Both the position numbers and the translations under genes were made by a program. The notes under the pieces are model-generated. The model searched no databases, had not been told where the DNA came from, and saw only the letters and a list, made by a program, of their open reading frames with translations. A stretch of DNA of 39,588 nucleotides from IMG/VR virus record IMGVR_UViG_2534681990_000031, one strand, 5' to 3'. The DNA is from a virus (Duplodnaviria > Heunggongvirae > Uroviricota > Caudoviricetes). Shown piece by piece: positions 1 to 39,588 of the stretch. The first letter of the stretch is position 1; each line of letters starts with the position of its first letter.

Positions 1-1554
1 TTATTTCAGATTCTTTCTAATTATTTTCCCCGAGCAATTACGTGGCAGATCTTTTCTGATCTCCAGATAAGAGGGCACTTTAAATTTCGCCATATTTTGT
101 TCGCAGAAGCGGAAAAATTCCTCTTCGCTCAATGTTTCACCTTCATTCAGCACCACAAATGCTTTGATGGCTTCATCGCGAATCGAATCTTTAATACCCA
201 CAACCACGATATCCTGAATTTTTGGATGGGTGGCGATGATATTTTCCAGCTCCACGCAGGAGACATTCTCGCCACCGCGTTTGATCATATTGCAGCGGCG
301 ATCGACGAAATAAAAAAAGCCCTCTTCGTCGCAGTATCCGGTATCGCCGGTATGTAGCCAGCCGTCGGCTTCCAGCACTTTCGCAGTGGCTTTCGGGTTG
401 AGAAAATACTCTTTGAAGATGGTTTTCCCTGGTACGCCTTTAATACAGATTTCACCGATCTCACCTGCCGGGAGCGGGCGATTGTGATCGTCGCGGATCT
501 CCGCTTCGTAGCAAAACCCCGCCCGACCAATCGACGGCCAGCGTCGTTTATCGCCAGGGCGATCGCCGATAATGCCCACAATGGTTTCCGTCATCCCATA
601 AGACGTCAGCAAGCGAACGCCGAAGCGTTCACAAAACGCATCTTTTTCCTGCTCCGACAAGTTGAGATAAAACATCACTTCCCGCAGGCGGTGTTGCCGA
701 TCGTTCGCTGAAGGCGGCTGCACCATCAACGTACGGATCATCATCGGAATACATTCGGTAATGGTGGCGCGGTACTTCTGCACCTGTCCCCAGAAGGCGC
801 GGGCGCTGTATTTCTCGACCAGCACAAAGGTGGCCCCGGCAGAAAACGCCGCCATCGCCGCAGTACACTGGCAATCGATATGAAACGCAGGCATTACCGT
901 CAGGTAGACGTCATCGTCACGCAGTGCACACTGCCAGGCGGAGTAATATCCAGCGAAGCGCAGGTTGTAATGGGTAATCACCACACCTTTCGGTCGGGAG
1001 GTGGTGCCGGAGGTGAAGAGAATTTCCGCCGTATCGTCAGTCAATAGCGGCGGTGCATAGCACAAGGTGGCAGGTTGTTGATTTTTCAGTTGAGTAAACG
1101 AACTCACGCCATCATCAGCGGGAAGTGCCACATCTGTCAGGCAAATGTGCCGCAATTGAGTGGCATCTTCCTGCTGAATCTGTTGATACATAGGATAGAA
1201 TTGCGCACTGGTCACCAGCAGGCACGCCTGGCTATTTTGCAGGATCCACGCGCTTTCCTCGCGTAACAGGCGGGCGTTAATCGGCACCATAATCGCGCCA
1301 ATTTTTGCCAGCCCGAACCAGCAAAAGATAAATTCCGGGCAGTTGTCGAGATGTAGTGCAACCTTGTCGCCTTTGCGAATCCCCAGCGTATAAAACAGGT
1401 TTGCCGTGCGGTTAATCTCCTGATTTAACTCAAGATAACTATACCGGTTAACGACTCCGCCGCTGGATTCACAAATCAGCGCCGTTTTATGACCGTAAAC
1501 GTCCGCCAGATCGTCCCACATTTGACGTAGATGTTGTCCGCCAATGATATCCAT
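1..1554 (-). CDS. caiC: crotonobetaine/carnitine-CoA ligase CaiC (host gene)
   Basis: Track ORF 1..1725(-); protein from [29 protein letters not shown] matches recalled E. coli CaiC; adenylate-forming motifs [10 protein letters not shown] and YGMTE; stop codon at window bases 1-3; in-frame ATG at 1569 (MDRGAM) is an alternative start. Confidence 0.9.
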
Positions 1555-1599
1555 TGCACCTCTATCCATTTTTGTTCGTTTGTTATTGGTATAGCGCGG

Positions 1600-1680
1600 C
1601 GATTTTTTTGATACCGATTTGCATTTCATTTGATACCGCTGAAAAACGCCGATACGCAACTTATTTGATACTAAATCGGC
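1600..1680. repeat. three direct TTTGATAC(C/T) repeats at phage right end, candidate transposase binding sites
   Basis: TTTGATACC near 1607 and 1629, TTTGATACT near 1664 (22 and 35 bp spacing); adjacent GAAAAACGC resembles the recalled Mu attR site core. Confidence 0.4.
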
Positions 1681-1717
1681 GCTTTTCTTTTGAGTTTTAG
1701 AATGAGTTTTTAAGCGC

Positions 1718-2455
1718 TCATTCACTCTCTTTCAAACCAGTTTTAACTGTTTGTGGTTTTGGGTAAGGCTGGACTTTGAATAGCTTTGTGTTGAGGCGTT
1801 TTCTGGCCCTCTTGTTCAGAAACCGGATGTAACGAAACTGTCGGAACTTATGCACACTGGCTCTGTCGATATTAGCCCTCAGATGTTCACCTCGTTGTCC
1901 GCCTCGTTTAATGGCATTCCTGCAAATCTCGTGATACCACTCGCCATCAAGTTCATAGAATGTTGATTCATGGCTGCCTACATAATCAAAATTGCTTGCC
2001 TGATACACGACACCAAGACAGCCACAACGCTCATCTGCAAACGACTGAACCCACTGTACCTGCGGATAAAGCTGCCTGATTAGCTTGAGCGCGTAACTGA
2101 TTGCCCTTGATTCGGAGTTTCTCGGCATACAGTCATGCATCCATAGCCGGTTAAGCTCCATATATTCTCGGTTCTGCGTACCCGTTACGACGCGTGCACC
2201 ACTGTTTGGGTTAAGGGCGTAACCCCATTGCATTACGCCAACAAGTTCCCGTTCTGAAAATATACCCAGATGAAGGTAGGAATTATTTACGAAACGGTGG
2301 CTGTAATGTTTATTGACGATAACCAGTCTGGCCAGCCAGCAACTTATTGTCTCAACCCGCAACTCACGGGAGCCATAACCAACGATATTGTCGTTATAGC
2401 GAATAAGTTCAGGCGTGCTGATGATACGGGATGTGACTTGCTTTCTGTTCCCCAC
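1718..2455 (-). CDS. mom: Mom-like DNA modification protein (anti-restriction adenine modification)
   Basis: Track ORF 245 aa; last gene before the phage right end; overlaps the 3' end of a Com-like zinc-finger ORF as in Mu; listed first codon is GTG so true start uncertain. Confidence 0.7.
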
Positions 2456-2609
2456 GACAGGATTTCCTTGTGTATGTGGGGTGCTCTGTGGCGCTCGGAG
2501 ATGTGATTTGATTGAGGGTTTTACTGCGCGGACATTTTACTTCCAGATAACTGAAACTGGCCCGTGCCAGTAGCTTATTGCAGTGTCGGCACCGTATGTT
2601 TCGATACAT
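2409..2609 (-). CDS. com: Com-like zinc-finger translational activator of mom
   Basis: Internal Met of track ORF 2409..2654 gives [30 protein letters not shown], resembling recalled Mu Com (IRCKNCNKLL...RCPRCK); overlaps mom start by ~47 bp. Confidence 0.65.
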
Positions 2610-2649
2610 GACCGCATAACCTCCTGCTTTGTTGTTGATGCCTTTCTCA

Positions 2650-2680
2650 TGCAATCGATCGACAAAAACGATCGATTCGA
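2650..2680 (-). promoter_or_regulatory. GATC/TCGATCGA cluster upstream of com-mom, candidate Dam-sensitive regulatory region
   Basis: Two GATC sites ~13 bp apart (about 2657 and 2670) within palindromic TCGATCGA/CGATCGAT about 50 bp upstream of com start; Mu mom promoter is regulated through clustered GATC sites. Confidence 0.4.
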
Positions 2681-2723
2681 TTTGTTTAATTGATACAACA
2701 AATAGATTGAAAAGTCATCAACA

Positions 2724-3188
2724 ATGATTCAGGGAGGTGATTATTTACTTAAAGAAAACGAAGAGTTAGGTGGTGAAAACGATCATAAAATGATCATTTT
2801 ATTGACTTTTTATACAGTGAAGGTAGGATCACGCGTACATGTAGTATGTTTCAAATCAACAGGATACTACATAAAAGTGAAACCCAGCATAGCTGGAACT
2901 ATGCTGGGTCAATCTGTAAAAACTTGCATCAATGCTTTACTTCGAGCTCGTGGCGTATCCTATGATATTCCCCGGTCTCCTGTAAAGCAGAGATGCATAA
3001 AAAGGAGATCTTTATCATGGATGAAAGAGCCTGTTTGCCCTGCCTGTAAGACTCCCTTACAGCTCATCTATCGCCGTTCTCGATCTCAAAATGGCAAGAC
3101 ATACAAACCCAAAAATGCTTCCTGTTTCAGGATGCTGATATGTCCTGCCTGTTCTCCCAGGAGGGAAAATACACAAAACGTGCATTAA
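2724..3188 (+). CDS. hypothetical Cys-rich protein; likely real product is the C-terminal ~55 aa (CPAC...CPAC) from an internal Met near 3021
   Basis: Track ORF 154 aa; C-terminal MKEPVCPACKTPLQ...CFRMLICPACS with AAGGAG-like RBS upstream of the internal ATG; convergent with minus-strand genes across a shared hairpin; N-terminal two thirds look non-protein-like. Confidence 0.25.
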   Translation: MIQGGDYLLKENEELGGENDHKMIILLTFYTVKVGSRVHVVCFKSTGYYIKVKPSIAGTMLGQSVKTCINALLRARGVSYDIPRSPVKQRCIKRRSLSWMKEPVCPACKTPLQLIYRRSRSQNGKTYKPKNASCFRMLICPACSPRRENTQNVH

Positions 3189-3226: not shown

Positions 3227-3472
3227 TTACATCATAGTACCGTCAGTTCCGGGCTGAACCGGCTCTGGTTGCTCTACGGGTTGAGGATCATTTTCCGTGC
3301 TGTTTTCAGCCGGAGAACGGCCAACCATTCGGGCCAGCACTTCATCAACATATGCGTCGATTTGTGCCTCAAAATCCTTGCGAACCTGCGCCTTCAGCAC
3401 GCGGTTCACTTCTTCAGAATAAAGTGCCTGTTTGACAAGCTCTTCAGTAACCGTGCCTTTAATCTCTGGCAT
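3227..3472 (-). CDS. hypothetical small charged protein (81 aa), cargo island
   Basis: Track ORF; AAAAGGAGAATATTC-ATG RBS; protein-like composition (MPEIKGTVTEELVKQALYSEEVNRVLKAQVRKDFEAQIDAYVDEVLARMV...). Confidence 0.5.
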   Translation of the reverse strand: MPEIKGTVTEELVKQALYSEEVNRVLKAQVRKDFEAQIDAYVDEVLARMVGRSPAENSTENDPQPVEQPEPVQPGTDGTMM

Positions 3473-3507: not shown

Positions 3508-3690
3508 TCAGAGCGGGGTCGGGTCGTTTGGGGATGACGGTGCCTGTGCTGTTTTACTGAGTTTTTCAGCTGCCGCATCATCAATTTTACGGCGAATATA
3601 ATTTCTGATGACCTTATAACCACCGCTCACCAGATATAACGCACTGACCACAGCGCAGAAATAAAGCAGCATTGTATGAACGAATGTCAT
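3508..3690 (-). CDS. hypothetical small membrane protein (60 aa, one N-terminal TM helix then basic tail)
   Basis: Track ORF MTFVHTMLLYFCAVVSALYLVSGGYKVIRNYIRRKIDD...; AAGG RBS; immediately upstream of the 81-aa ORF. Confidence 0.45.
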   Translation of the reverse strand: MTFVHTMLLYFCAVVSALYLVSGGYKVIRNYIRRKIDDAAAEKLSKTAQAPSSPNDPTPL

Positions 3691-3803: not shown

Positions 3804-3838
3804 CCCGCCAGCCATATCATGACCGGCGGGATTTTTTT
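3804..3838 (+). terminator. GC stem (CCCGCC...GGCGGG) followed by T7 run, plus-strand terminator-like element overlapping esterase stop codon
   Basis: 6-bp stem with 15-nt loop then ATTTTTTTAT; T run is on the plus strand only; the loop is long for an intrinsic terminator. Confidence 0.3.
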
Positions 3839-5876
3839 ATTCTGTTACCGCTTTTTTCACTTCCACCACAATGCTGTCAATCAGCACCGGGTAAGTTGCA
3901 TTTTTTGTGATATCCGTTACGCGGAGTTTGTCCACCGGGAAAGTTCCTACTGGTGACTGCGTCAGGGTAAACGCGGCACCATCCTGACCATCAATAACCG
4001 GAATAACCTGAAGGCTGTTATTTCCTGCAAAACGGAAGGCCAGCGTATGCCATTCATTATCAAATGCACCAAAGGTTCCCAGTTTCTGGTTATTTGTTGC
4101 CACTTTTGCATTGTGGTACATCACATTCAGGTCTTTTGCGTCTGTCTGGATGTAGAACGATGCCAGCAGATTATTCCCTGCATCCCCTGTCAGGGTGACA
4201 CCCTGCGGCAGAGAGGAAACCGGCCAGTAAAGCCCCATGACATACTGGTTTGCCACCAGGTCGCCAGGTACTTTAAAACGACAACTGATTAAACCACCAT
4301 TTTTCAGCAGTTCAGCACCAGTACCGGCATCATGATCCAGATACCAAGATGATTTACCTGTTTCCTTGGTCAGTTTCATTGCCTTACCACCTGTGCCTCC
4401 TGCATCACTGATAATTTCAGCTTTACCGCCAGCCGGCTCCCAGCCCTGGGCTTTCAGATTTCCTTCTGACTCACTGACACGATAAGACAGCAGTGTTGTG
4501 GTTACTGCTTCAGTTTCTGAAGGTGACGGCACTGGTGCTTCAGTTTCAGAAGATGGAACATCGGCTTTTACTGTGGTTCGCCCCGCATGAGTCAGAACTG
4601 CCGTGGCCAGACGGTCGGAAATAATCCCACGACGTGCCCATGAACTGAAATGGCTGGCCCGGTCCGCAGATGTCCAGGTGGCGGCACTGTTACGCCACGT
4701 TGAGCCGTAATAACCAATGGATTCAATATCCGGGTCTTCTGCCGGATTGTTGGTGGGTACATTCGCGTCATTTTCATCTGTCATTAATGGAACGAAATGA
4801 ATGTTTTTATCTGTTTTGTTTTTGTAGCCGCCATAGATTGCCTGGTATGCCGGTTCATTTTTCTGTTTCCAGAAATACGTGGTATCGCCACAAATCCACG
4901 GAACGCCAGCAGCACTGCCACCGGTACACTGTTCCGCCTGTTCAGCCAGGTCTGCGCGGAATTTTTCCACCATCGCCAGAAACAGCGCGGAATGCTCCGT
5001 CGGCTTCGCATCAATATCAAACTCGCCCTGCATCCACACCACAGCAAGCAGGCGGTTTTTCGGGTTCTTCGCCAGTGCCGCTTTTGTCCGGCTGATTAAG
5101 TCCTTATACAGCGGCTTATCCACACCCCAGCGGGCTGAGTCCTCTGAAGCACCCGTGCTGTCACTGTACGTGCCGTCAGCACCCGCCGTGAATGCAGAAC
5201 CACCACGGCAGCAGGGAACCAGCAGAATCCCCGCATCTGCCGGAATAAACGGCAGCAGTTTTTTGGCAATGTGAAGCCCCTGACCCACGGTGCCATATTG
5301 CCCTTTAGCCACATCCGCTTTCGGGTGATTTTTTCCACTCATATCCTGCACATCATGCAGACAGTGGTCGGCCAGAATGATGTCGTTATACTGACAGGCT
5401 TTACCTCCCGGCGTGACTGTACTGCGACGGGCTAACTGCATAATACGCGGTTCGGGGCGGTCATATGTCTCCGGCAGTGGCAGACCTTCACCGTAAGCCA
5501 TACCGTTTGACTGACCAGCAAGAACCACCACGTAATACCAGGAAGGGGAGCTGGAAGCAGTTTCATTTCCTGACGGACGGGTATGTGTTTCAGCATTATC
5601 CCAGTCTGACGGTTCAGCAGTACCGGCAACATCAGCACTTAACGGAATGACCGCACCAATACCCGCTCCGGTAATTTCCACACTCGGATCACCGGATACT
5701 GGCCTTACCCACAGGCAATCCCGTGTATTAAAACTGATGAGACAGTCAGCAAATGTCATTCCTCCTTTTGTTTCGGCCGGAGGAAAGGGAGCCTCAAGAA
5801 ATGCCGCTGTACCACCGGAAACTTTAACAGTAAAGTTTCCGGGCATTGATGATAGTTGAACCCATTTGGACGTCAT
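3837..5876 (-). CDS. putative sialate O-acetylesterase-type SGNH/SASA hydrolase with C-terminal beta-rich (lectin-like) domain; NanS-p-like prophage cargo
   Basis: Track ORF 679 aa; VVVLAGQSNGMAYGEG (GQSN block I) and LLAVVWMQGEFD motifs typical of the SASA esterase family; S/T/P-rich linker PSSETEAPVPSPSETEA; sits between gin and com where Mu has no gene. Confidence 0.6.
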   Translation of the reverse strand: MTSKWVQLSSMPGNFTVKVSGGTAAFLEAPFPPAETKGGMTFADCLISFNTRDCLWVRPVSGDPSVEITGAGIGAVIPLSADVAGTAEPSDWDNAETHTRPSGNETASSSPSWYYVVVLAGQSNGMAYGEGLPLPETYDRPEPRIMQLARRSTVTPGGKACQYNDIILADHCLHDVQDMSGKNHPKADVAKGQYGTVGQGLHIAKKLLPFIPADAGILLVPCCRGGSAFTAGADGTYSDSTGASEDSARWGVDKPLYKDLISRTKAALAKNPKNRLLAVVWMQGEFDIDAKPTEHSALFLAMVEKFRADLAEQAEQCTGGSAAGVPWICGDTTYFWKQKNEPAYQAIYGGYKNKTDKNIHFVPLMTDENDANVPTNNPAEDPDIESIGYYGSTWRNSAATWTSADRASHFSSWARRGIISDRLATAVLTHAGRTTVKADVPSSETEAPVPSPSETEAVTTTLLSYRVSESEGNLKAQGWEPAGGKAEIISDAGGTGGKAMKLTKETGKSSWYLDHDAGTGAELLKNGGLISCRFKVPGDLVANQYVMGLYWPVSSLPQGVTLTGDAGNNLLASFYIQTDAKDLNVMYHNAKVATNNQKLGTFGAFDNEWHTLAFRFAGNNSLQVIPVIDGQDGAAFTLTQSPVGTFPVDKLRVTDITKNATYPVLIDSIVVEVKKAVTE

Positions 5877-5975: not shown

Positions 5976-6536
5976 TTATTTTTCCGAAACGCTCGCAGGA
6001 TAATAACGATAAAGGGTTGAAAGGCCGATATCAAAAATAAGTGCCACCTGTCTTCGACTGACACCCCCGGCCAGTAAACGCCCGACCTGCTCGTATTGTT
6101 CCTGCGTGAGACGACGGGGTCTGCCGCCGGTTCGTCCCCTTTCACGGGCAGCTGCAAGACCAGCCCGTGTCCGTTCGACAATTAATTCACGCTCCATTTC
6201 TGCCAGCGCACCCATTATGTGAAAAAAGAAGCGCCCCATGGGGGTTGACGTATCAATGTTGTCAGTAAGACTACGAAAATTTATCCCCTGTTGCTGTAAT
6301 TCATCTGTCAGCGCAACAAGGTGGCGCATACTGCGCCCCAGCCTGTCCAGTTTCCAGACCATCAGTGTGTCACCGGGTTTTAGTTTCTTCAGTGCCCGCT
6401 TCAGTCCCGGCCGCTGTGTCGTTTTACCACTCATTTTATCTTCAAAAATCTGCTCACATCCTGCACATTCCAGCGCATTTCTTTGTAAACCTGTGTTCTG
6501 GTCATTTGTTGATACGCGTATATAGCCAATCAGCAT
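5976..6536 (-). CDS. gin: Gin/Hin/Pin-family serine DNA invertase
   Basis: MLIGYIRVSTNDQNTGLQRNALECAGCEQIFEDK... closely resembles recalled Mu Gin including catalytic-Ser motif RVSTNDQ and C-terminal HTH. Confidence 0.9.
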   Translation of the reverse strand: MLIGYIRVSTNDQNTGLQRNALECAGCEQIFEDKMSGKTTQRPGLKRALKKLKPGDTLMVWKLDRLGRSMRHLVALTDELQQQGINFRSLTDNIDTSTPMGRFFFHIMGALAEMERELIVERTRAGLAAARERGRTGGRPRRLTQEQYEQVGRLLAGGVSRRQVALIFDIGLSTLYRYYPASVSEK

Positions 6537-6591: not shown

Positions 6592-6617
6592 TCCCTGAAA
6601 CCTCGGTTTACGGGATA
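6592..6617. other. gix-like recombination site (left crossover)
   Basis: AAACCTCGGTTTACGGGA resembles the recalled Mu gix core AAACCTCGGTTTACAGGAA; lies ~60 bp upstream of gin start; inverted-repeat homology with the tail-fibre gene begins here. Confidence 0.5.
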
Positions 6618-6961
6618 CTGTAAACAGGGCCGCGAATGCCCTGCCATCGAACGGAGCGGCTGTTGCAGCGAATAAACTCGCCACTCCAAGAAATATTAAT
6701 GGTGTCCCATTTGACGGAACGCAGGATATAAATATTACATCGGGGATGACGCAGTCTGTGGCTGACTCACGTTATGTTCAAAGCATTCGAAGAGGTTCAA
6801 GGTCAACGATTGGAATGCAATATAATATTTTTGAGGTTCCTGACGGATGCGTACTTACAGGGCTTGATGTCGCTGGTGATGGTAATGCAACGGTAACCGC
6901 ATATTATCGACCTGTTCAGTTTCTGATAGATGGTTCGTGGAAAACAGCTTCCAGCGCATAA
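6599..6961 (+). CDS. silent alternative tail-fibre C-terminal cassette (S'v-like), promoter-less and start-less in this orientation
   Basis: Open frame begins right after a TGA at the gix site; shares ~60 aa with the expressed fibre then a distinct 60-aa tip ...GCVLTGLDVAGDGNATVTAYYRPVQFLIDGSWKTASSA. Confidence 0.6.
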   Translation, partial: NLGLRDTVNRAANALPSNGAAVAANKLATPRNINGVPFDGTQDINITSGMTQSVADSRYVQSIRRGSRSTIGMQYNIFEVPDGCVLTGLDVAGDGNATVTAYYRPVQFLIDGSWKTASSA

Positions 6962-7040
6962 AAGTGCAGTAGTTCAAAAAACAGATTATCTGAATAAATA
7001 TATGATGATTTTGTCTTTTCAACAAAAACAAGGTGAAATA

Positions 7041-7562
7041 ATGGAGCTTATTAACGTAAAACGATATTACCCGGAACACAAACCCTATGGTGAGGATGTT
7101 CAGTATTTCCAGAGTGAGGACGGAAGGGATTTTTATGAATCTATCCCGCTTTTCACAAAGAAATACAAACTCTGTATTTCGCCTGTAACGGGTATTATCT
7201 GCTCTGTTGCTGAAGATGTCTCTGCTTTATATCCGGCAGGTTTTACTGTTGTTGAAGTGGACGAACTGCCGGAAGGTGTGAATATTGACGGTAACTGGCA
7301 GTTTTCTGATGGCCTGATATCAAAGGTGCCGGTAAACTGGAAGACGGTTGCTGAAAAGCGCCGCTCATCGCTGCTCCAGGAAGCCAACGAAACTGTGGAT
7401 GACTGGAAAACGGAATTAAAACTGGACATGATTAGCGATGAAAATAAATTACAGCTGACGCGCTGGATGGCGTATATCCGACAGCTTAAAGAAATGCACT
7501 TTAATGATATTGCCAGTGAGGGGCATTACCAGGCGATTCCCTGGCCGGAAAAACCGGAATAA
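7041..7562 (+). CDS. tail fibre assembly chaperone (Tfa/U'-like)
   Basis: MELINVKRYYPEHKPYGE...GFTVVEVDELPEGV...AIPWPEKPE has Tfa-family architecture; AAGGTG RBS 6 nt upstream; follows the silent tip cassette; track ORF starts earlier at 6930. Confidence 0.7.
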   Translation: MELINVKRYYPEHKPYGEDVQYFQSEDGRDFYESIPLFTKKYKLCISPVTGIICSVAEDVSALYPAGFTVVEVDELPEGVNIDGNWQFSDGLISKVPVNWKTVAEKRRSSLLQEANETVDDWKTELKLDMISDENKLQLTRWMAYIRQLKEMHFNDIASEGHYQAIPWPEKPE

Positions 7563-7568
7563 TTCAGA

Positions 7569-7589
7569 GGGTGCATTCAGCACCCTTTT
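7569..7589. terminator. hairpin GGGTGC-ATTCA-GCACCC plus TTTT between convergent Tfa and tail-fibre genes
   Basis: Lies in the 35-bp gap between Tfa stop (7562) and fibre stop (7597), inside the invertible segment. Confidence 0.4.
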
Positions 7590-7596
7590 CTGTGGT

Positions 7597-8508
7597 TTAC
7601 ACTGAACTTACCGTTCTCCAGGCATTATTAATATAAATCTGAACCGGGCGATAATAGACCCCACCGATATTGTCCGCAGACCGGGAGCCGGTTTCCTGCA
7701 CGTTAATTCCGGAAAGCATACAACCGGAAGGTGCGCTGTAATTCCATGACATTTCATTGCCTCCGGGTGAATGATAGCTCTGTGCTCCAAGCTGAACATT
7801 CTGTACATACCGGCCATCTGCGGTTGACTGCGTCATTCCTGACGTGATGTTGATATCCAGCGTTCCGTCAAAAGGAACACCATTAATATTTCTTGGGGTG
7901 GCGAGTCTGTTTGCTGCCACGGCGGTTCCACCCGATGGCAGGGCATCAGCAGCCTTATTTACCGTTTCCCGTAAACCGACGTTATCGATAAAAGCGCCTT
8001 TATCCGGAATGTCTGCGCCGTTCTGCTCCCTGCGCAGGTAACGGTTATCACCTTCGCTTTTGCTGTAAACATCCAGATTATTACGGGCGGTTCCCGCATT
8101 CTCCAGGTCGGCAAGGTTCTGATCCTTCGCCAGAGCATTAACGTCACCGGGACCAAGACTGTTTTTTGTGGCAAGCGCCCCAAGACCAAGATAACCACGG
8201 GCAAGACGCTGGGCTTCCGCACCGGCATCAGCAATTTCTTTCAGGTTGTTTTTCCGGGAAAAGGCATTCGCAGCGATAATGGCTTTAATGGACAGCGTAA
8301 GCTGGTTTAACTGCGCCTTATCCGGCTGAATACTGGCTTCAGCCAGAATATTCAGCAGTTCGGCCTGGAGAATATTCAGCCAGTCCTGACCAATCCAGCT
8401 GATACCTTTTTGTCCGTCACCTTCGGTAAACCAGGTGGTGGTATTACTCTGCGCCGGTGCCAGCGCAGGCATATTCGCCACGCCGGAATTATTATCAACA
8501 TGGAACAT
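7597..8508 (-). CDS. tail fibre protein (S-like), constant N-terminus plus currently expressed variable tip
   Basis: Start MFHVDNNSG (ATG overlapping stop of upstream gene as TAATG); Gly/Asn/Ala-rich fibre-like sequence; C-terminal 67 aa unique to this orientation; track ORF extends to 8562. Confidence 0.8.
   Translation of the reverse strand: MFHVDNNSGVANMPALAPAQSNTTTWFTEGDGQKGISWIGQDWLNILQAELLNILAEASIQPDKAQLNQLTLSIKAIIAANAFSRKNNLKEIADAGAEAQRLARGYLGLGALATKNSLGPGDVNALAKDQNLADLENAGTARNNLDVYSKSEGDNRYLRREQNGADIPDKGAFIDNVGLRETVNKAADALPSGGTAVAANRLATPRNINGVPFDGTLDINITSGMTQSTADGRYVQNVQLGAQSYHSPGGNEMSWNYSAPSGCMLSGINVQETGSRSADNIGGVYYRPVQIYINNAWRTVSSV
7966..7991. other. gix-like recombination site (right crossover, inside tail-fibre gene)
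   Basis: Minus-strand ATAACGTCGGTTTACGGGAAAC at codons for NVGLR; start of homology with left site. Confidence 0.45.
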
Positions 8509-19407: not shown

Positions 19408-19778
19408 GCACGGGCCTGTTCCGCTTTGTTACCGGTCTTTTTCCGGGGAGCATCCTGTCCGGCTTCGGCTTCGGCTTCGGCTTCGGCTTCGGCTTCGGCT
19501 AAATCTGTACCGGCCACTGCATGAACCACACCCGCCACGCTCCCCGCATCATCAGCAGACGTCTGTAGTATTCGCACAGTGAGGCATGGCTCCTCCTCCA
19601 GTCGGGCAAGCTGCTCCGGGGTGACCTCAACCTGCTGACGTCCACGCGTGAACAGGAACCCCGCACGACGAAACGCCGAACGACTGCAACGCACTTCTGC
19701 CAGCACCGTGACAGAATTGTCACCACTGACCTGAAGACCTGAATCATCTGTTGCTGCCACAGTGTGATGTTCATTCAT
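19404..19778 (-). CDS. head-associated protein (Mu gp35 position) with C-terminal (Glu-Ala)n tract
   Basis: 124 aa; ...LAEAEAEAEAEAEAGQDAPRKKTGNKAEQARA; located between major head and gp36-like genes. Confidence 0.55.
   Translation of the reverse strand: MNEHHTVAATDDSGLQVSGDNSVTVLAEVRCSRSAFRRAGFLFTRGRQQVEVTPEQLARLEEEPCLTVRILQTSADDAGSVAGVVHAVAGTDLAEAEAEAEAEAEAGQDAPRKKTGNKAEQARA
19461..19500. repeat. (GGCTTC) hexanucleotide tandem repeat, ~6.7 copies, in-frame inside a CDS
   Basis: ggcttcggcttcggcttcggcttcggcttcggcttcggct read directly; encodes (EA)n on the minus strand. Confidence 0.9.
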
Positions 19779-19821: not shown

Positions 19822-20769
19822 TTACAGATAATCCGCGACAACCAGCTCCAGCTTACCCTTCATCTCGTTAGAGACGGTTGCGTTTCCGTCTGCGAACAGT
19901 TCACGCTCCAGCAGCTGCACCGCCTGTTTTTCCAGCGAGGTGGGGACAACAATATGGGTGGGTTTAATGCCGAGTTTGCGGCCACCGTCAGCGGTAAATT
20001 CGCGCATGGCTGACCAGCCGTGCCACAGTGCATCCAGCGTCAGCGGTGACTGCATCATGTAGGCCATCTGCCAGAAGCCGTAGCCCACATTGCGACGGGC
20101 GGATGCACCAAACACAAATTCGTTATCGGTGAATGCGCGACCTTCATCGACTTTGGTCTGGGCAACCAGTTCAGCCTTACGGCGATCCTGATAAATCAGC
20201 GGTTTTACCGCGCGGGAGCAGTCAAGCAGATACCAGGCCGGACCGCTGTAATCAGCCTGTGCGCCGACAGAGCCGGTTTTTGCCACAAACATATTGCTGA
20301 CCATCTGCGCATCCCCGGAGCCATCCACTTTGGGGTAAACCGGATGTTCGGTATCAAAGAAGTTCTGACCGTCATAGCAGGCCGCACTGATCCCGTCACG
20401 CAGGGCAGCAAAGACCAGCTCATCCGGTTGTACCGCCGCAGCGCGCCCCATCTCCTGGAACAACGGGGAATAAATACCGAGGTTGTCGTCTTCGAAGTCA
20501 TCGCGGCTAATGGCGACAGTGCCTTCAAAAGTTTTGTTCACGATGGCATAGCCATAGGCTTTCATCTTCTCGATGACGCGGGAGCCGATCCACTCACGGA
20601 ACTGCGGGAACTGCCCCAGCCAGCCGTAGGTGTTGGATTTCGATGTGGAGGGCACGGTCATCGCAATTTTTTTATACTGCGACGGGGCCATGGACATCCC
20701 GGCCTGAAAATCAGAACGGTAGCCCGTCATCAGGGCTGTGATCATCGCCGGTGTAATCGGGGTAGGCAT
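19822..20769 (-). CDS. major head subunit (Mu T-like)
   Basis: 315 aa; follows I protease/scaffold gene with overlapping stop/start; sequence type matches Mu-like major head family. Confidence 0.85.
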   Translation of the reverse strand: MPTPITPAMITALMTGYRSDFQAGMSMAPSQYKKIAMTVPSTSKSNTYGWLGQFPQFREWIGSRVIEKMKAYGYAIVNKTFEGTVAISRDDFEDDNLGIYSPLFQEMGRAAAVQPDELVFAALRDGISAACYDGQNFFDTEHPVYPKVDGSGDAQMVSNMFVAKTGSVGAQADYSGPAWYLLDCSRAVKPLIYQDRRKAELVAQTKVDEGRAFTDNEFVFGASARRNVGYGFWQMAYMMQSPLTLDALWHGWSAMREFTADGGRKLGIKPTHIVVPTSLEKQAVQLLERELFADGNATVSNEMKGKLELVVADYL

Positions 20770-31691: not shown

Positions 31692-32060
31692 TTAATCAGT
31701 TTCCAGTGCTTTGCTACGGGCAACAGCCTCACACTCAAAAAATACCGACTCCGGCACACGCTCCTTTAATTCACGAACAAGAAAATCATTAACGAGTTCA
31801 TGACGTCTTATATTTCTTTCCTTTTCCTCCTGGCGCAATACAGCAAGGCGGTATTCAACAGTCCGGCGTTGTTTCTGAAAGACAGCCAGTGCTTTTCTGG
31901 CAGAGTTACGCAATGTATCATCGCCACAGGGTTCGTATTCAAGCTGAAATTTAATCTCTTCAATGGTTTCTTTTATTTTTGCCAGCAAGCTAAGACAGTC
32001 GCTGATTGTCTTCAGTTTTTCATTATCAATATAACTTCTCACGCATTCACCTCCCGTCAT
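31692..32060 (-). CDS. hypothetical coiled-coil protein (~122 aa)
   Basis: Track ORF 31692..32084; start moved to internal ATG (MTGGECV) that abuts upstream stop. Confidence 0.45.
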   Translation of the reverse strand: MTGGECVRSYIDNEKLKTISDCLSLLAKIKETIEEIKFQLEYEPCGDDTLRNSARKALAVFQKQRRTVEYRLAVLRQEEKERNIRRHELVNDFLVRELKERVPESVFFECEAVARSKALETD

Positions 32061-32368
32061 TCCGGTAAAGCTGAAATATGGCACCAGTGCGTCACCTGTC
32101 CGTCCTCATCTTCAAGGCAGGCTCCGGTTTCTTCATCAATAAAAAAGCCTTCATACCCCATATGGCCGATGCGCAGTTCCTGTTGGTCACCATACTGAAC
32201 AATCAGCACGACAGCCTCCATATCAGGCGGGAAAGCATCATTCAGTGAATGCCAGGGATAACCGCGCAAATCCCCGAAATAAACACCGGTCAGCGTTCCG
32301 CCACAGACCGGCATTCCGACGGCACACACAAGGGGTTCATCTGATTCAACAAATAATGTCGTTATCAT
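32057..32368 (-). CDS. hypothetical strongly acidic protein (103 aa)
   Basis: Track ORF; ~20 Asp/Glu versus few basic residues; ATGA overlap with upstream gene. Confidence 0.5.
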   Translation of the reverse strand: MITTLFVESDEPLVCAVGMPVCGGTLTGVYFGDLRGYPWHSLNDAFPPDMEAVVLIVQYGDQQELRIGHMGYEGFFIDEETGACLEDEDGQVTHWCHISALPE

Positions 32369-36269: not shown

Positions 36270-36497
36270 TTAGCTGACTTGTTTCGCACCAACAGAACGG
36301 CATATTCCGCTGTAAACGTCTGTCGCACCTTCGCGATCAAGTCCGGCAGATATCACCATTCGTGTGCGGTCATTAAATTCAAAAAGTAAATCGCCACATT
36401 CTTTATTTTCGGCCAGTGAAATCACCTTCACGTTATCGAAATTAACCAGGTAAAAGCGTCCGTAAATATCAGGAATATTAAATACCGCCATAATCAC
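36270..36497 (-). CDS. small protein at the position of Mu kil (75 aa)
   Basis: Track ORF immediately downstream of B with ATGA overlap; function by position only. Confidence 0.45.
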   Translation of the reverse strand: MIMAVFNIPDIYGRFYLVNFDNVKVISLAENKECGDLLFEFNDRTRMVISAGLDREGATDVYSGICRSVGAKQVS

Positions 36498-37426
36498 ACC
36501 TGTGAGAGTAATTCAGGGTTGGTATAAACCTCTTTAAAGGCCGCATTAATATGTTTTTCTGTCAGCGCCGCGCCTTCACCGCTGGCGGTGAGCCACGCCT
36601 GGTTAAGCGTATGTGTCAGAACGCGTAACGCTCCCGGCTTTTCAGCGATAGCCTGCATGACGGCCAGCTCGGCCTCACCACTGATCCCCCACGCCCTGGC
36701 AATGGCCAGCACATCCGCCTTTTTGGCCTTGCGAAGTTGTTTTGTACGGGCAAGACGGCTGAACAGGCGCGATAAATCATCAAAGGCGCGGCGTCCACCT
36801 TTAAACAATCCGCGCGGGTTACCAATAAGCACCATCCCGATCCCCGTGGCGTCCTGAATTGCCCGGAGTTGCTCCAGACCGTCAATACCCAGATGATCCG
36901 CCTCATCCACAATCACCAGTCCACGCGTTCCCATCAGGCGACGGCGGATGGCGCGGGATAATGCCCCTTTGTTCGCGCGGGTGTAATCAATCCCCAGCGC
37001 ATCGGCCAGCTCCAGCAGACACTCCGTGACGCTGGAGTGCGCGGGTGACAGGGTGATCATCCAGGTGTTTGGTTGCTCCTGGCAGTAATTACGGGCAGTG
37101 GCCGTTTTACCCACACCCGGTACGCCCACAATAACGTTAATACAGCCCATCAGACGAACCGCCTGAAACAGTGCGCGCAGCTCCTGGACTGTCTGCGTTT
37201 CCACAAACTGCGGCGGTTCCGGCAGTGCGCTTTGTTTATTCCAGTTTTCATACCAGGAACGCAGGGAAGCAGCCACAGCGGCGTTATCGCCTTTATATTT
37301 CCCCTTGCGGAAAGCCGATAATGTGCCGTCGGAAATTCCCGCCTCTCTGGCGATGGCATACTGCGTCAGTACGCCGCCATCAATAAGTTCATCAATGGTC
37401 TTGATTACATCGTTAATATCAGTCAT
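36494..37426 (-). CDS. B: MuB-like AAA+ ATPase target-DNA activator
   Basis: 310 aa; N-terminal HTH (TQYAIAREAGISDGTLSAF), Walker A GVPGVGKT, Walker B LVIVDEADHL; strong similarity to recalled Mu B. Confidence 0.9.
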   Translation of the reverse strand: MTDINDVIKTIDELIDGGVLTQYAIAREAGISDGTLSAFRKGKYKGDNAAVAASLRSWYENWNKQSALPEPPQFVETQTVQELRALFQAVRLMGCINVIVGVPGVGKTATARNYCQEQPNTWMITLSPAHSSVTECLLELADALGIDYTRANKGALSRAIRRRLMGTRGLVIVDEADHLGIDGLEQLRAIQDATGIGMVLIGNPRGLFKGGRRAFDDLSRLFSRLARTKQLRKAKKADVLAIARAWGISGEAELAVMQAIAEKPGALRVLTHTLNQAWLTASGEGAALTEKHINAAFKEVYTNPELLSQV

Positions 37427-37464
37427 ATTATTAACCTCTCATTTGATACCTTGTTTAATCAAAT

Positions 37465-37498
37465 AACCTGAGTCGCCGCTCGGGTTATTTTTTTATTT
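37465..37498. other. hairpin with T7 run in A-B intergenic region
   Basis: AACCTGAG-TCGCCG-CTCGGGTT then ATTTTTTTATTT on plus strand; adjacent ATTTGATACC shares the right-end repeat motif. Confidence 0.3.
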
Positions 37499-39588
37499 CA
37501 GGCCAGCGGGTCATTTTCTTTTAATTTCGCTTCCAGCAACTGCAATCCCCGCTGGAAATTACGCTCGTATTCTTCATCAGGTTCATCGTCAGCGACCGGT
37601 TGCTGAACGGTCACCGTATTACCCACAGGGCGGTATATGTTTTCCAGCCAGGGCTCCTGCGGCTTGTGCTCCAGCACGTTGACAACCTCATCCTCGGCAT
37701 CACGGATTTTTTCCTCTGCGCGTTTACGCATGCCTTTAAGGCGTTGCTGCTGTTTGTAGTATTCCGCGCTGACCGGGAAGGCTTCGCGTTTATTGCCGTC
37801 CCATACCGCCTCGCAAATCACGCTGCCATCCAGGCGACGTACGGTAATTCGTTCGGCATCATGAATGTCATAGCTGATAAGCACCTTACGGCCATGCTCG
37901 TCACGCAGCTCGGGCGCGTAGTAAATATTATTCAGCCAGCGTATTTCACAGCGTCTTACAGGGCGTTCCACCATCGGCCGGAACATATCCCGCAGCTCAA
38001 CATCGGACAGCCATTCAATTTCCGTGTCCTCTTCCGCCAGGCGTTTTTTTCTGAACTCCGCCGGGCTGTAATGCTTGCCGTTCGGCTTCACCGGTAATTC
38101 ATCGTGCGGCCGGTTGTTGTACCACTCAACACCGTCACGAATGGCATCAATCAGTTCAGACCAGGACGGTAAATCACGCATCGCTGACTGCTGCCGGGCG
38201 TTCAGCCGTTTGCCCTGTTGCAGGGCAGTAAATGCCGAGCGTAAATCGCGGTTGGTTTTGCGTAACGTCTCGCGATCTGCACCTTTCCCGAAATAGGTGC
38301 GGTATTTACGGGCTATGCGCATCGGTAATGTGCGGTTAAGCCGTTCGATAATGCCTCGTCCCTGCGGATTACCGGCAATCCCGGTCGGGTGATTAATCCC
38401 CAGTCGCGGCAGTATCCCCACAACCTCCTTATCCAGGATGTCGGCGGTTTCCCCGGAGCCGTTATCCGAGTAATACAGAAACGGTTTGCCGTGATGGCGA
38501 ATGCCGTGCTGTATGGCACCGGCTACGGCGAAAACATTTTCAGCCAGGTCAAGGCTCCAGCCCACCACAAAGCGCGTGCCACCGTCGATAACAAAGGTCA
38601 CTTCCGGTGCAAATGGCCGACCGTGAACCGGGTGTGCGCATTTCAGCTTCATGCCGTGACCGTCACCAATCCAGACATAATTCACCGGCATTCTGGACCA
38701 GTCGCGGCGCGTGAATCCCTCAAGCTGGCGGTATTCACTGCCGGTCACCCGGCCTTTTTGTTTCACCACTTCCGGCAGTTTCTTCATTGCGCGGCGAATG
38801 GAGTCATAAGACGGCATGATATCGAGCATATAAGGCTCATTAGCGTGCCGGTGCTGCCATTCAGCGACAAAATCCTCGTAAGCCTCGGTCATTGGTCGGC
38901 CGTTTGACTGGCGATACTGCGCCAGAAATTCGGGCAGCCAGTTAATATCTTCGGCTTTTATTTCCTGGCGCTTACCCGGTGCCAGTAAAAGCAGGCGTTC
39001 AGCGGCGTTCTGCGCCTTGTTAAAGGCCGCAATCCAGCGTTTCAGCGTGATTTCACTTAACGCGCGGCTGTTTCCCTTTTTGGCGTTCGCCGTCTCAACC
39101 ATTGCCACAATGCGCTCGTCCAGCTGCGAACGTGCCAGGTTGTCAACGATAAACCGGATAGCCTTCGCACAGCTGAAACCAGGTTGTTGCGCGACTTTCA
39201 GAACTTCGCTGACGATCGCGATTCGTGCATCAGCCACCTGGCGCTGGTTTTCAGTCAGGGCATTAAGGCGTTCGACCATCAGTTGTGGTGATCCGCGATA
39301 TGCCTCCACCGCATCAACCACGGCAGGCGAGCGTCTGGCCTTTGTCACCACTGGAGCCGGTGATTCATCGACTTTTTGAGTCATCAGTTGCAGGGCGTAG
39401 CGTTCACGTAATGCCTGCTGCGTCACTTCAGGTAAACAGTCGATGCTGTATTCAGTTGCTTTAGAGCCTGAGCGACGACGGGAACAACAGCTTTTCCCTT
39501 GTACGTAACGTTGTAATGCCTGGCGAATACCTTTTGTTGTAGCAGGCATTCCGGGCGCGCCAATCAGTTCTTTTGCAATGACATACAT
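37498..39588 (-). CDS. A: Mu-type DDE transposase A (starts at window edge; possibly full length)
   Basis: 696 aa; N-terminus ELIGAPGMPATTKGIRQALQRY...KATEYSIDCLPEVTQQAL parallels recalled Mu A DNA-binding domain; central DDE/RNase-H-like region (WIGDGHGMKLK...YYSDNGSGE); ATG is the last codon of the window. Confidence 0.9.
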   Translation of the reverse strand: MYVIAKELIGAPGMPATTKGIRQALQRYVQGKSCCSRRRSGSKATEYSIDCLPEVTQQALRERYALQLMTQKVDESPAPVVTKARRSPAVVDAVEAYRGSPQLMVERLNALTENQRQVADARIAIVSEVLKVAQQPGFSCAKAIRFIVDNLARSQLDERIVAMVETANAKKGNSRALSEITLKRWIAAFNKAQNAAERLLLLAPGKRQEIKAEDINWLPEFLAQYRQSNGRPMTEAYEDFVAEWQHRHANEPYMLDIMPSYDSIRRAMKKLPEVVKQKGRVTGSEYRQLEGFTRRDWSRMPVNYVWIGDGHGMKLKCAHPVHGRPFAPEVTFVIDGGTRFVVGWSLDLAENVFAVAGAIQHGIRHHGKPFLYYSDNGSGETADILDKEVVGILPRLGINHPTGIAGNPQGRGIIERLNRTLPMRIARKYRTYFGKGADRETLRKTNRDLRSAFTALQQGKRLNARQQSAMRDLPSWSELIDAIRDGVEWYNNRPHDELPVKPNGKHYSPAEFRKKRLAEEDTEIEWLSDVELRDMFRPMVERPVRRCEIRWLNNIYYAPELRDEHGRKVLISYDIHDAERITVRRLDGSVICEAVWDGNKREAFPVSAEYYKQQQRLKGMRKRAEEKIRDAEDEVVNVLEHKPQEPWLENIYRPVGNTVTVQQPVADDEPDEEYERNFQRGLQLLEAKLKENDPLA

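Follow-up and report, generated by a model that had tools for sequence, protein, structure and literature searches.

In the 39,588-nucleotide stretch of DNA analyzed here (hereafter the window), caiC, a gene of the carnitine operon of E. coli, lies directly beside phage genes rather than beside caiB, its expected upstream neighbor. This arrangement raises the questions of where host sequence gives way to phage sequence, what kind of phage is involved, and whether caiC and the genes that follow it can still be expressed. An initial annotation had placed the right end of a Mu-like prophage immediately upstream of caiC, splitting the operon, and had expected a 5-bp target duplication. Our preferred reading, to which we assign a probability of about 0.85, is that an Sp18-type prophage transposed into the caiB-caiC spacer, duplicated the four bases CCAA and split the operon, which by inference leaves caiCDE largely silent.

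Host sequence and insertion site

The caiC gene occupies positions 1-1554 on the minus strand and encodes a crotonobetaine/carnitine-CoA ligase, intact at 517 amino acids as judged by its open reading frame and translation, with the Pfam domains AMP-binding and AMP-binding_C. The initial annotation had described the gene as complete with its start codon, and this is borne out by RefSeq, in which the CaiC accession (WP_000351348.1) is identical in the interrupted strain E. coli UTAK-8 and the uninterrupted strain E2863. When window positions 1-2500 were compared by megablast with 5,426 complete E. coli genomes, the host match ran from 1 to 1589 and stopped exactly there in the uninterrupted genomes among the matches listed. 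A match through 2500 was found only in UTAK-8 (NZ_CP168991.1), the one genome of the 5,426 with this insertion in cai.

The native caiB-caiC spacer measures 73 bp in E2863. Side-by-side comparison with the native sequence places the leftover, caiC-proximal 35 bp of the spacer at 1555-1589, which are 100% identical to the native spacer among the uninterrupted genomes listed from a set of more than 5,000 E. coli genomes, and sequence from 1590 on is foreign. The host/phage junction is thus at 1589|1590, 35 bp from the caiC start codon and inside the interval of about 20-50 bp in which replacement of host sequence had been predicted. The remnant retains the GAGGTG ribosome-binding region of caiC and an alternative upstream ATG at 1569. 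A 574-amino-acid open reading frame at 1-1725 on the minus strand, beginning with a GTG at 1725, was considered and rejected as a gene; the caiC frame is simply open across the junction. This spurious frame takes in the phage end together with the final mom-region codons and could mislead gene callers.

The window is 99.98% identical to UTAK-8, from whose RefSeq record it differs by five substitutions, one single-base gap and 30 bp (five CGGCTT units) fewer in the window, and it may derive from a sibling isolate of UTAK-8 or from another assembly. In UTAK-8 the gene order is caiT-caiA-caiB, the 39.3-kb prophage, then caiC-caiD-caiE, so that caiB is found where the initial annotation would have it once the prophage is crossed; E2863 has the native order with caiB next to caiC. 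All six cai coding sequences are intact in UTAK-8, and their protein accessions are the same as in the uninterrupted strain. What is broken is the contiguity of caiTABCDE, which is interrupted between caiB and caiC by 39,304 bp. The prophage is co-directional with the operon, its left end and repressor adjoining caiB and its mom gene and right end adjoining caiC.

The right end of the prophage

The right end (attR) of this Sp18-like transposable prophage is a non-coding segment of 128 bp at 1590-1717, reaching from the mom stop codon to the junction. On the plus strand the right terminus reads 5'-TATAGCGCGG, and the phage strand therefore ends ...CGCTATA-3'. This terminus is identical at 10 insertion sites. 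With positions 1590-1900 as query, 311 of 311 nucleotides matched at 100% identity at many unrelated sites, always beside mom among the genomes listed.

Three direct repeats of the motif TTTGATACY lie on the plus strand within this end: R1 (TTTGATACC, 1607-1615), a presumed transposase-binding site 18 nt from the terminus, R2 (TTTGATACC, 1629-1637) and R3 (TTTGATACT, 1664-1672). Measured from the right terminus they stand at 18, 40 and 75 nt; the corresponding copies at the left end stand 18, 113 and 165 nt from the left terminus. Across the whole window the motif occurs five times against 0.36 expected, and at least five copies were reached in none of 100 shuffles. The repeat-bearing phage end followed by mom (1718-2455) that had been read from the sequence is therefore present, and together with com it marks a Mu-type right end just upstream of caiC. 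Two more exact copies of TTTGATACC occur inside the phage, at 37442-37450 on the plus strand and 20350-20358 on the minus strand. One internal copy falls in the short gap that separates the transposase stop codon from the MuB start codon; an internal site for transposase binding or for regulation is conceivable, as is a chance occurrence. Scanned with Rfam at gathering thresholds, the whole window returned no RNA family.

Termini and target-site duplication

In operon orientation the native site reads GCCCGCCCAATAACAAACG. The left junction, taken from UTAK-8, reads ...GCCCGCCCAA-TGTAACCAGG..., with the phage beginning TGTAACC, and the right junction reads ...GCGCTATA-CCAATAAC..., with the phage ending GCTATA. 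The right-hand copy of the duplicated target is at 1586-1589, TTGG on the plus strand and CCAA in operon orientation. A 4-bp duplication was found at all 10 of the independent Sp18-type insertion sites compared (cai, agaF, an HNH gene, an MFS gene, a DUF4224 gene, recX, an epimerase gene, terB, phnM and sorM of strain Sakai), and the 5 bp that the initial annotation had anticipated must be given up, the extra T belonging to the phage.

At the cai site a 5-bp duplication, CCAAT, can be read. This was dropped: at the nine further sites the left neighbor beyond the four repeated bases is always T and the right neighbor is variable, so the constant fifth base is phage-borne, and the apparent 5-bp duplication at cai is chance. 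Two other 5-bp readings, in which the fifth base was overwritten or the right-terminal A is host-derived, both fail because the empty recX and agaF sites, when rebuilt with 4 bp, are exactly the native sequence, 100% identical over 296 nt in a single piece. The first TTTGATACC motif, moreover, is 18 nt from the terminus at both ends only if the T is counted as phage. Genuine Mu prophages read in the same way, as a control, gave 5 bp (GCCGC and TTCAT, in E. coli W and Z0117EC0098).

Sp18-type phage is thus bounded by 5'-TGTAACC...GCTATA-3' and duplicates 4 bp of its target, which fits a transposase only 22% identical to MuA. In GenBank record LC727881, a related copy, the depositors annotated a 4-bp 'duplication due to insertion'. 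A literature search for a published 4-bp duplication in Mu-like prophages found none beyond this GenBank feature annotation. The exact boundaries of Sp18-type prophages are settled by these comparisons, and the 4-bp rule matters where ends are called by the 5-bp repeat of Mu; it is a useful correction to boundary calling that depositors had already annotated. On this reading, the RefSeq feature for Sp18 in Sakai (5040971-5079729) misses the first base of the phage and runs on for five bases past its end, an offset that arises because the duplication is 4 bp rather than 5 bp.

Prophage identity and gene content

In UTAK-8 the prophage is 39,304 bp long and carries 59 phage genes. Its leftmost ~1.27 kb, with attL, the repressor and ner, is outside the window, which agrees with the earlier expectation that the left end would have to be sought elsewhere; the end lies ~1.27 kb past the transposase start codon. 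By BLASTN the closest comparison, Sp18 of O157:H7 Sakai, matches at 98.97% over 29.3 kb and at 98.0% over 7.2 kb, for a total of 36.5 kb at 98-99% nucleotide identity. The label Mu-like holds for this prophage, and its subtype is corrected to the Sp18 type, whose transposase is only 22% identical to MuA. At about 31692-32361, some 0.7 kb of the early region is without a close match in Sakai Sp18; it is a mosaic replacement, with two extra small hypothetical genes in UTAK-8 and one in Sp18.

Right ends of the Sp18 type occur at 283 places in 231 of 5,426 E. coli genomes, with up to four places per genome, and UTAK-8 carries a single copy. That one of the 5,426 genomes carries this prophage in cai is as expected for a near-random transposition event. 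The insertion is a new site of a known phage type, the Sp18 group, in a genome already public and annotated, and it is an ordinary strain-specific event, not a new kind of element. E. coli UTAK-14, from the same isolate series, harbors this phage in recX; its transposase gene there is frameshifted, and that copy may be immobilized.

The gene nearest to the junction is mom (1718-2455, minus strand; stop codon 1718-1720), which encodes a DNA adenine modification protein of 245 amino acids and is oriented towards caiC; its product matches Pfam Mom (PF25680, E = 5.8e-77) and is 79% identical to Mu Mom. Its start is overlapped by com (2409-2609, minus strand), the translational activator of mom, which matches Pfam Zn_ribbon_Com and is labelled a 'Com family' CDS by RefSeq at the matching position in UTAK-8. 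Just upstream of com, at 2653-2677, lies a palindrome, AATCGATCG-ACAAAAA-CGATCGATT, with two GATC (Dam) sites, similar to the region ahead of Mu mom that is under Dam/OxyR control. A terminator-like hairpin with a 13-bp stem and a T-rich tail is predicted at 2881-2910 on the minus strand, where it follows the cargo genes and precedes com-mom.

The cargo comprises a sialate O-acetylesterase-like gene (3837-5876, minus strand; 679 amino acids; Pfam SASA and DUF6645) and two small open reading frames for DUF1378 and DUF826 proteins (3508-3690 and 3227-3472). At the nucleotide level the esterase gene is 78-81% identical to genes that many Stx-converting phages carry, annotated there as yjhS or 9-O-acetyl-N-acetylneuraminic acid deacetylase. 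A Gin-type serine invertase (5976-6536, minus strand; Pfam Resolvase and HTH_7) stands beside an invertible tail-fiber segment (6599-7983) bounded by 182-nt inverted repeats, the opposite orientation of which is annotated in strain 2-6-2. Tail and head genes of the Mu type are present according to the UTAK-8 annotation. At 19460-19500, an 'HI1506-related' head-region gene contains a perfect hexamer tandem repeat of 6.8 CGGCTT units; the gene varies from 387 to 411 bp among prophage copies, and the repeat number is therefore unstable.

At the far end of the window, a MuB-type AAA+ transposition ATPase (36494-37426, minus strand; Pfam Phage-MuB_C, E = 2.5e-25, and AAA_22) that is 48% identical to Mu B is encoded beside a Mu-type transposase of 696 amino acids (37498-39588, minus strand), at whose start codon the window ends. 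The transposase passes the Pfam cut-offs for both Mu-transpos_C (E = 1.5e-17) and HTH_Tnp_Mu_1 (E = 6.9e-6), and its similarity to MuA is weak and full-length (22% identity, E = 6e-11).

Predicted consequences for the cai operon

A single intergenic control region, governed by CaiF, CRP and FNR, drives both cai and fix, and caiB and caiC respond to promoter replacement at this region and to upstream polarity (PMC3680233). CaiF is activated by crotonobetainyl-CoA (PMC12083890). On our reading, an intact 39.3-kb prophage inserted by DDE transposition at a point 35 bp from the caiC start codon; caiTAB stays behind the promoter controlled by CaiF, CRP and FNR, and caiCDE now lies 39 kb from this sole known promoter of the operon, which is upstream of caiT. 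The only co-directional units just upstream of caiCDE are the cargo genes, followed by the terminator-like hairpin, and com-mom. The activation of carnitine and crotonobetaine to CoA esters by CaiC and the dehydration of carnitinyl-CoA by CaiD should then be lost. With no CaiC and CaiD the pathway would be unprimed and the CaiF inducer should not form, little crotonobetainyl-CoA, the activator of CaiF, being made. For UTAK-8 this predicts no CaiC, CaiD or CaiE, loss of carnitine/crotonobetaine respiration and weak CaiF induction of the remaining cai and fix genes. Loss of caiCDE expression in the lysogen is probable, judging from the architecture of the operon (PMC3680233) and from the scan, in which no outward promoter was predicted.

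Two alternatives would do away with the insertion itself. That 1555-1717 is simply native caiB-caiC intergenic sequence, the outcome named in advance as fatal to the proposal, is scarcely credible: alignment to the uninterrupted cai locus shows only 1555-1589 to be native, the 73-bp spacer diverges from the window from 1590 onward, and the sequence at 1590-1900 recurs perfectly at unrelated loci beside mom in the genomes listed. A mis-assembly, in which a Mu-like prophage from elsewhere was wrongly joined to cai, has in its favor that transposable prophages can be multi-copy, with up to four places per genome here, and that such repeats may confuse assemblers. It is nevertheless very improbable, as UTAK-8 is a closed, complete genome with a single copy of the prophage, and the native target is repeated exactly at both junctions as the 4-bp duplication typical of Sp18-type phage.

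Other readings accept the insertion and differ in what follows from it. The insertion may be real but non-polar, with caiCDE usefully expressed through transcription that runs on from com-mom or from the cargo genes, or through an unrecognized outward promoter in the right end. The mom and caiC genes are co-directional, the ribosome-binding region of caiC is kept, and from the mom stop codon (1718) to the caiC ATG (1554) the caiC strand has no predicted promoter-like or terminator-like site, so that late or spontaneously induced com-mom transcription would reach caiCDE. On the caiC strand from 1400 to 3000, however, the sole promoter-like site predicted is at 2986-2957. The scan matched a simple sigma-70 consensus and might overlook an outward promoter in the phage end that is weak or depends on an activator. 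At 2910-2881 a strong terminator-like hairpin separates the cargo genes from com-mom. Transcription of mom in Mu, furthermore, occurs only late, requires the activator C and is off in lysogens. We therefore consider a non-polar insertion unlikely. A coupling in both directions is conceivable because prophage and operon are co-directional and neither junction has a convincing predicted intrinsic terminator: CaiF/CRP/FNR-driven transcription leaving caiB would run antisense to the repressor gene at the phage left end, and caiCDE would be driven, on induction, by late transcription of com-mom. If it were true, derepression of the prophage would be sensitive to anaerobiosis and carnitine. At the left junction the scan gave only two weak terminator-like sites, both inside the repressor gene and no more than in shuffles; with this result on the left and no outward promoter predicted on the right, the coupling is without positive support and we judge it decidedly improbable. 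Silencing of caiCDE by a polar prophage thus remains our preferred reading.

Comparison with known systems

Mu insertions act as polar mutations, and the cai insertion resembles a classic polar mutation by the 'mutator' phage. Another strain-specific disruption of cai is found in E. coli UTAK-15 (NZ_CP169018.1), a sibling veal isolate, but there an IS600-family element lies within the caiC coding sequence, whereas the insertion here is a prophage between two genes. That cai was hit twice in the same strain series, each time by a different mobile element, suggests that the operon is dispensable in that niche.

With Mu the prophage shares a transposase and MuB ATPase, a Gin-invertible tail-fiber segment, com-mom at the right end and near-random insertion, as well as three end sites per end, of which one is at the terminus and the other two are far from it on the left or clustered near it on the right. 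It differs in that its end-site motif is TTTGATACY and not that of Mu, its right terminus is TA-3' rather than the CA-3' of Mu (its left end being 5'-TG, in TGTAACC), its target duplication is 4 bp where Mu read in the same way has 5 bp, and three extra cargo genes stand between gin and com. The prophage is therefore Mu-like in its transposase and MuB, its putative arrays of end sites, its Gin and Mom proteins and the multitude of its insertion sites, and it departs from strict Mu (Muvirus) in two defining features, duplicating 4 bp instead of 5 bp and ending on the right in TA-3' instead of CA-3'. Strict Mu is marked, too, by headful packaging, with variable host DNA at the virion ends, and by replicative transposition.

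Among isolated phages, the nearest in transposase sequence, at 79% amino acid identity, are the Yersinia phages vB_YpM_5 and vB_YpM_6, which have a different host and whose virion DNA carries variable host flanks. These phages are themselves described as Mu-like, with a C-repressor, Ner, G segment, Gin and Mom (PMC10434027). The nearest known system overall is Sp18 of Sakai, described as an intact, packaged Mu-like prophage whose DNA was found not to be circularized and which was not inducible by mitomycin C (PMC2669165); relatives of Sp18 in STEC occupy variable chromosomal sites (PMC7430833, PMC10132054). The prophage described here has the same gene order as Sp18, from repressor, ner, A and B to gin, cargo, com and mom, the same termini (TGTAACC...GCTATA) and the same 4-bp duplication, whereas it differs in the length of the CGGCTT repeat and in its location, the caiB-caiC spacer here as against sorM in Sakai.
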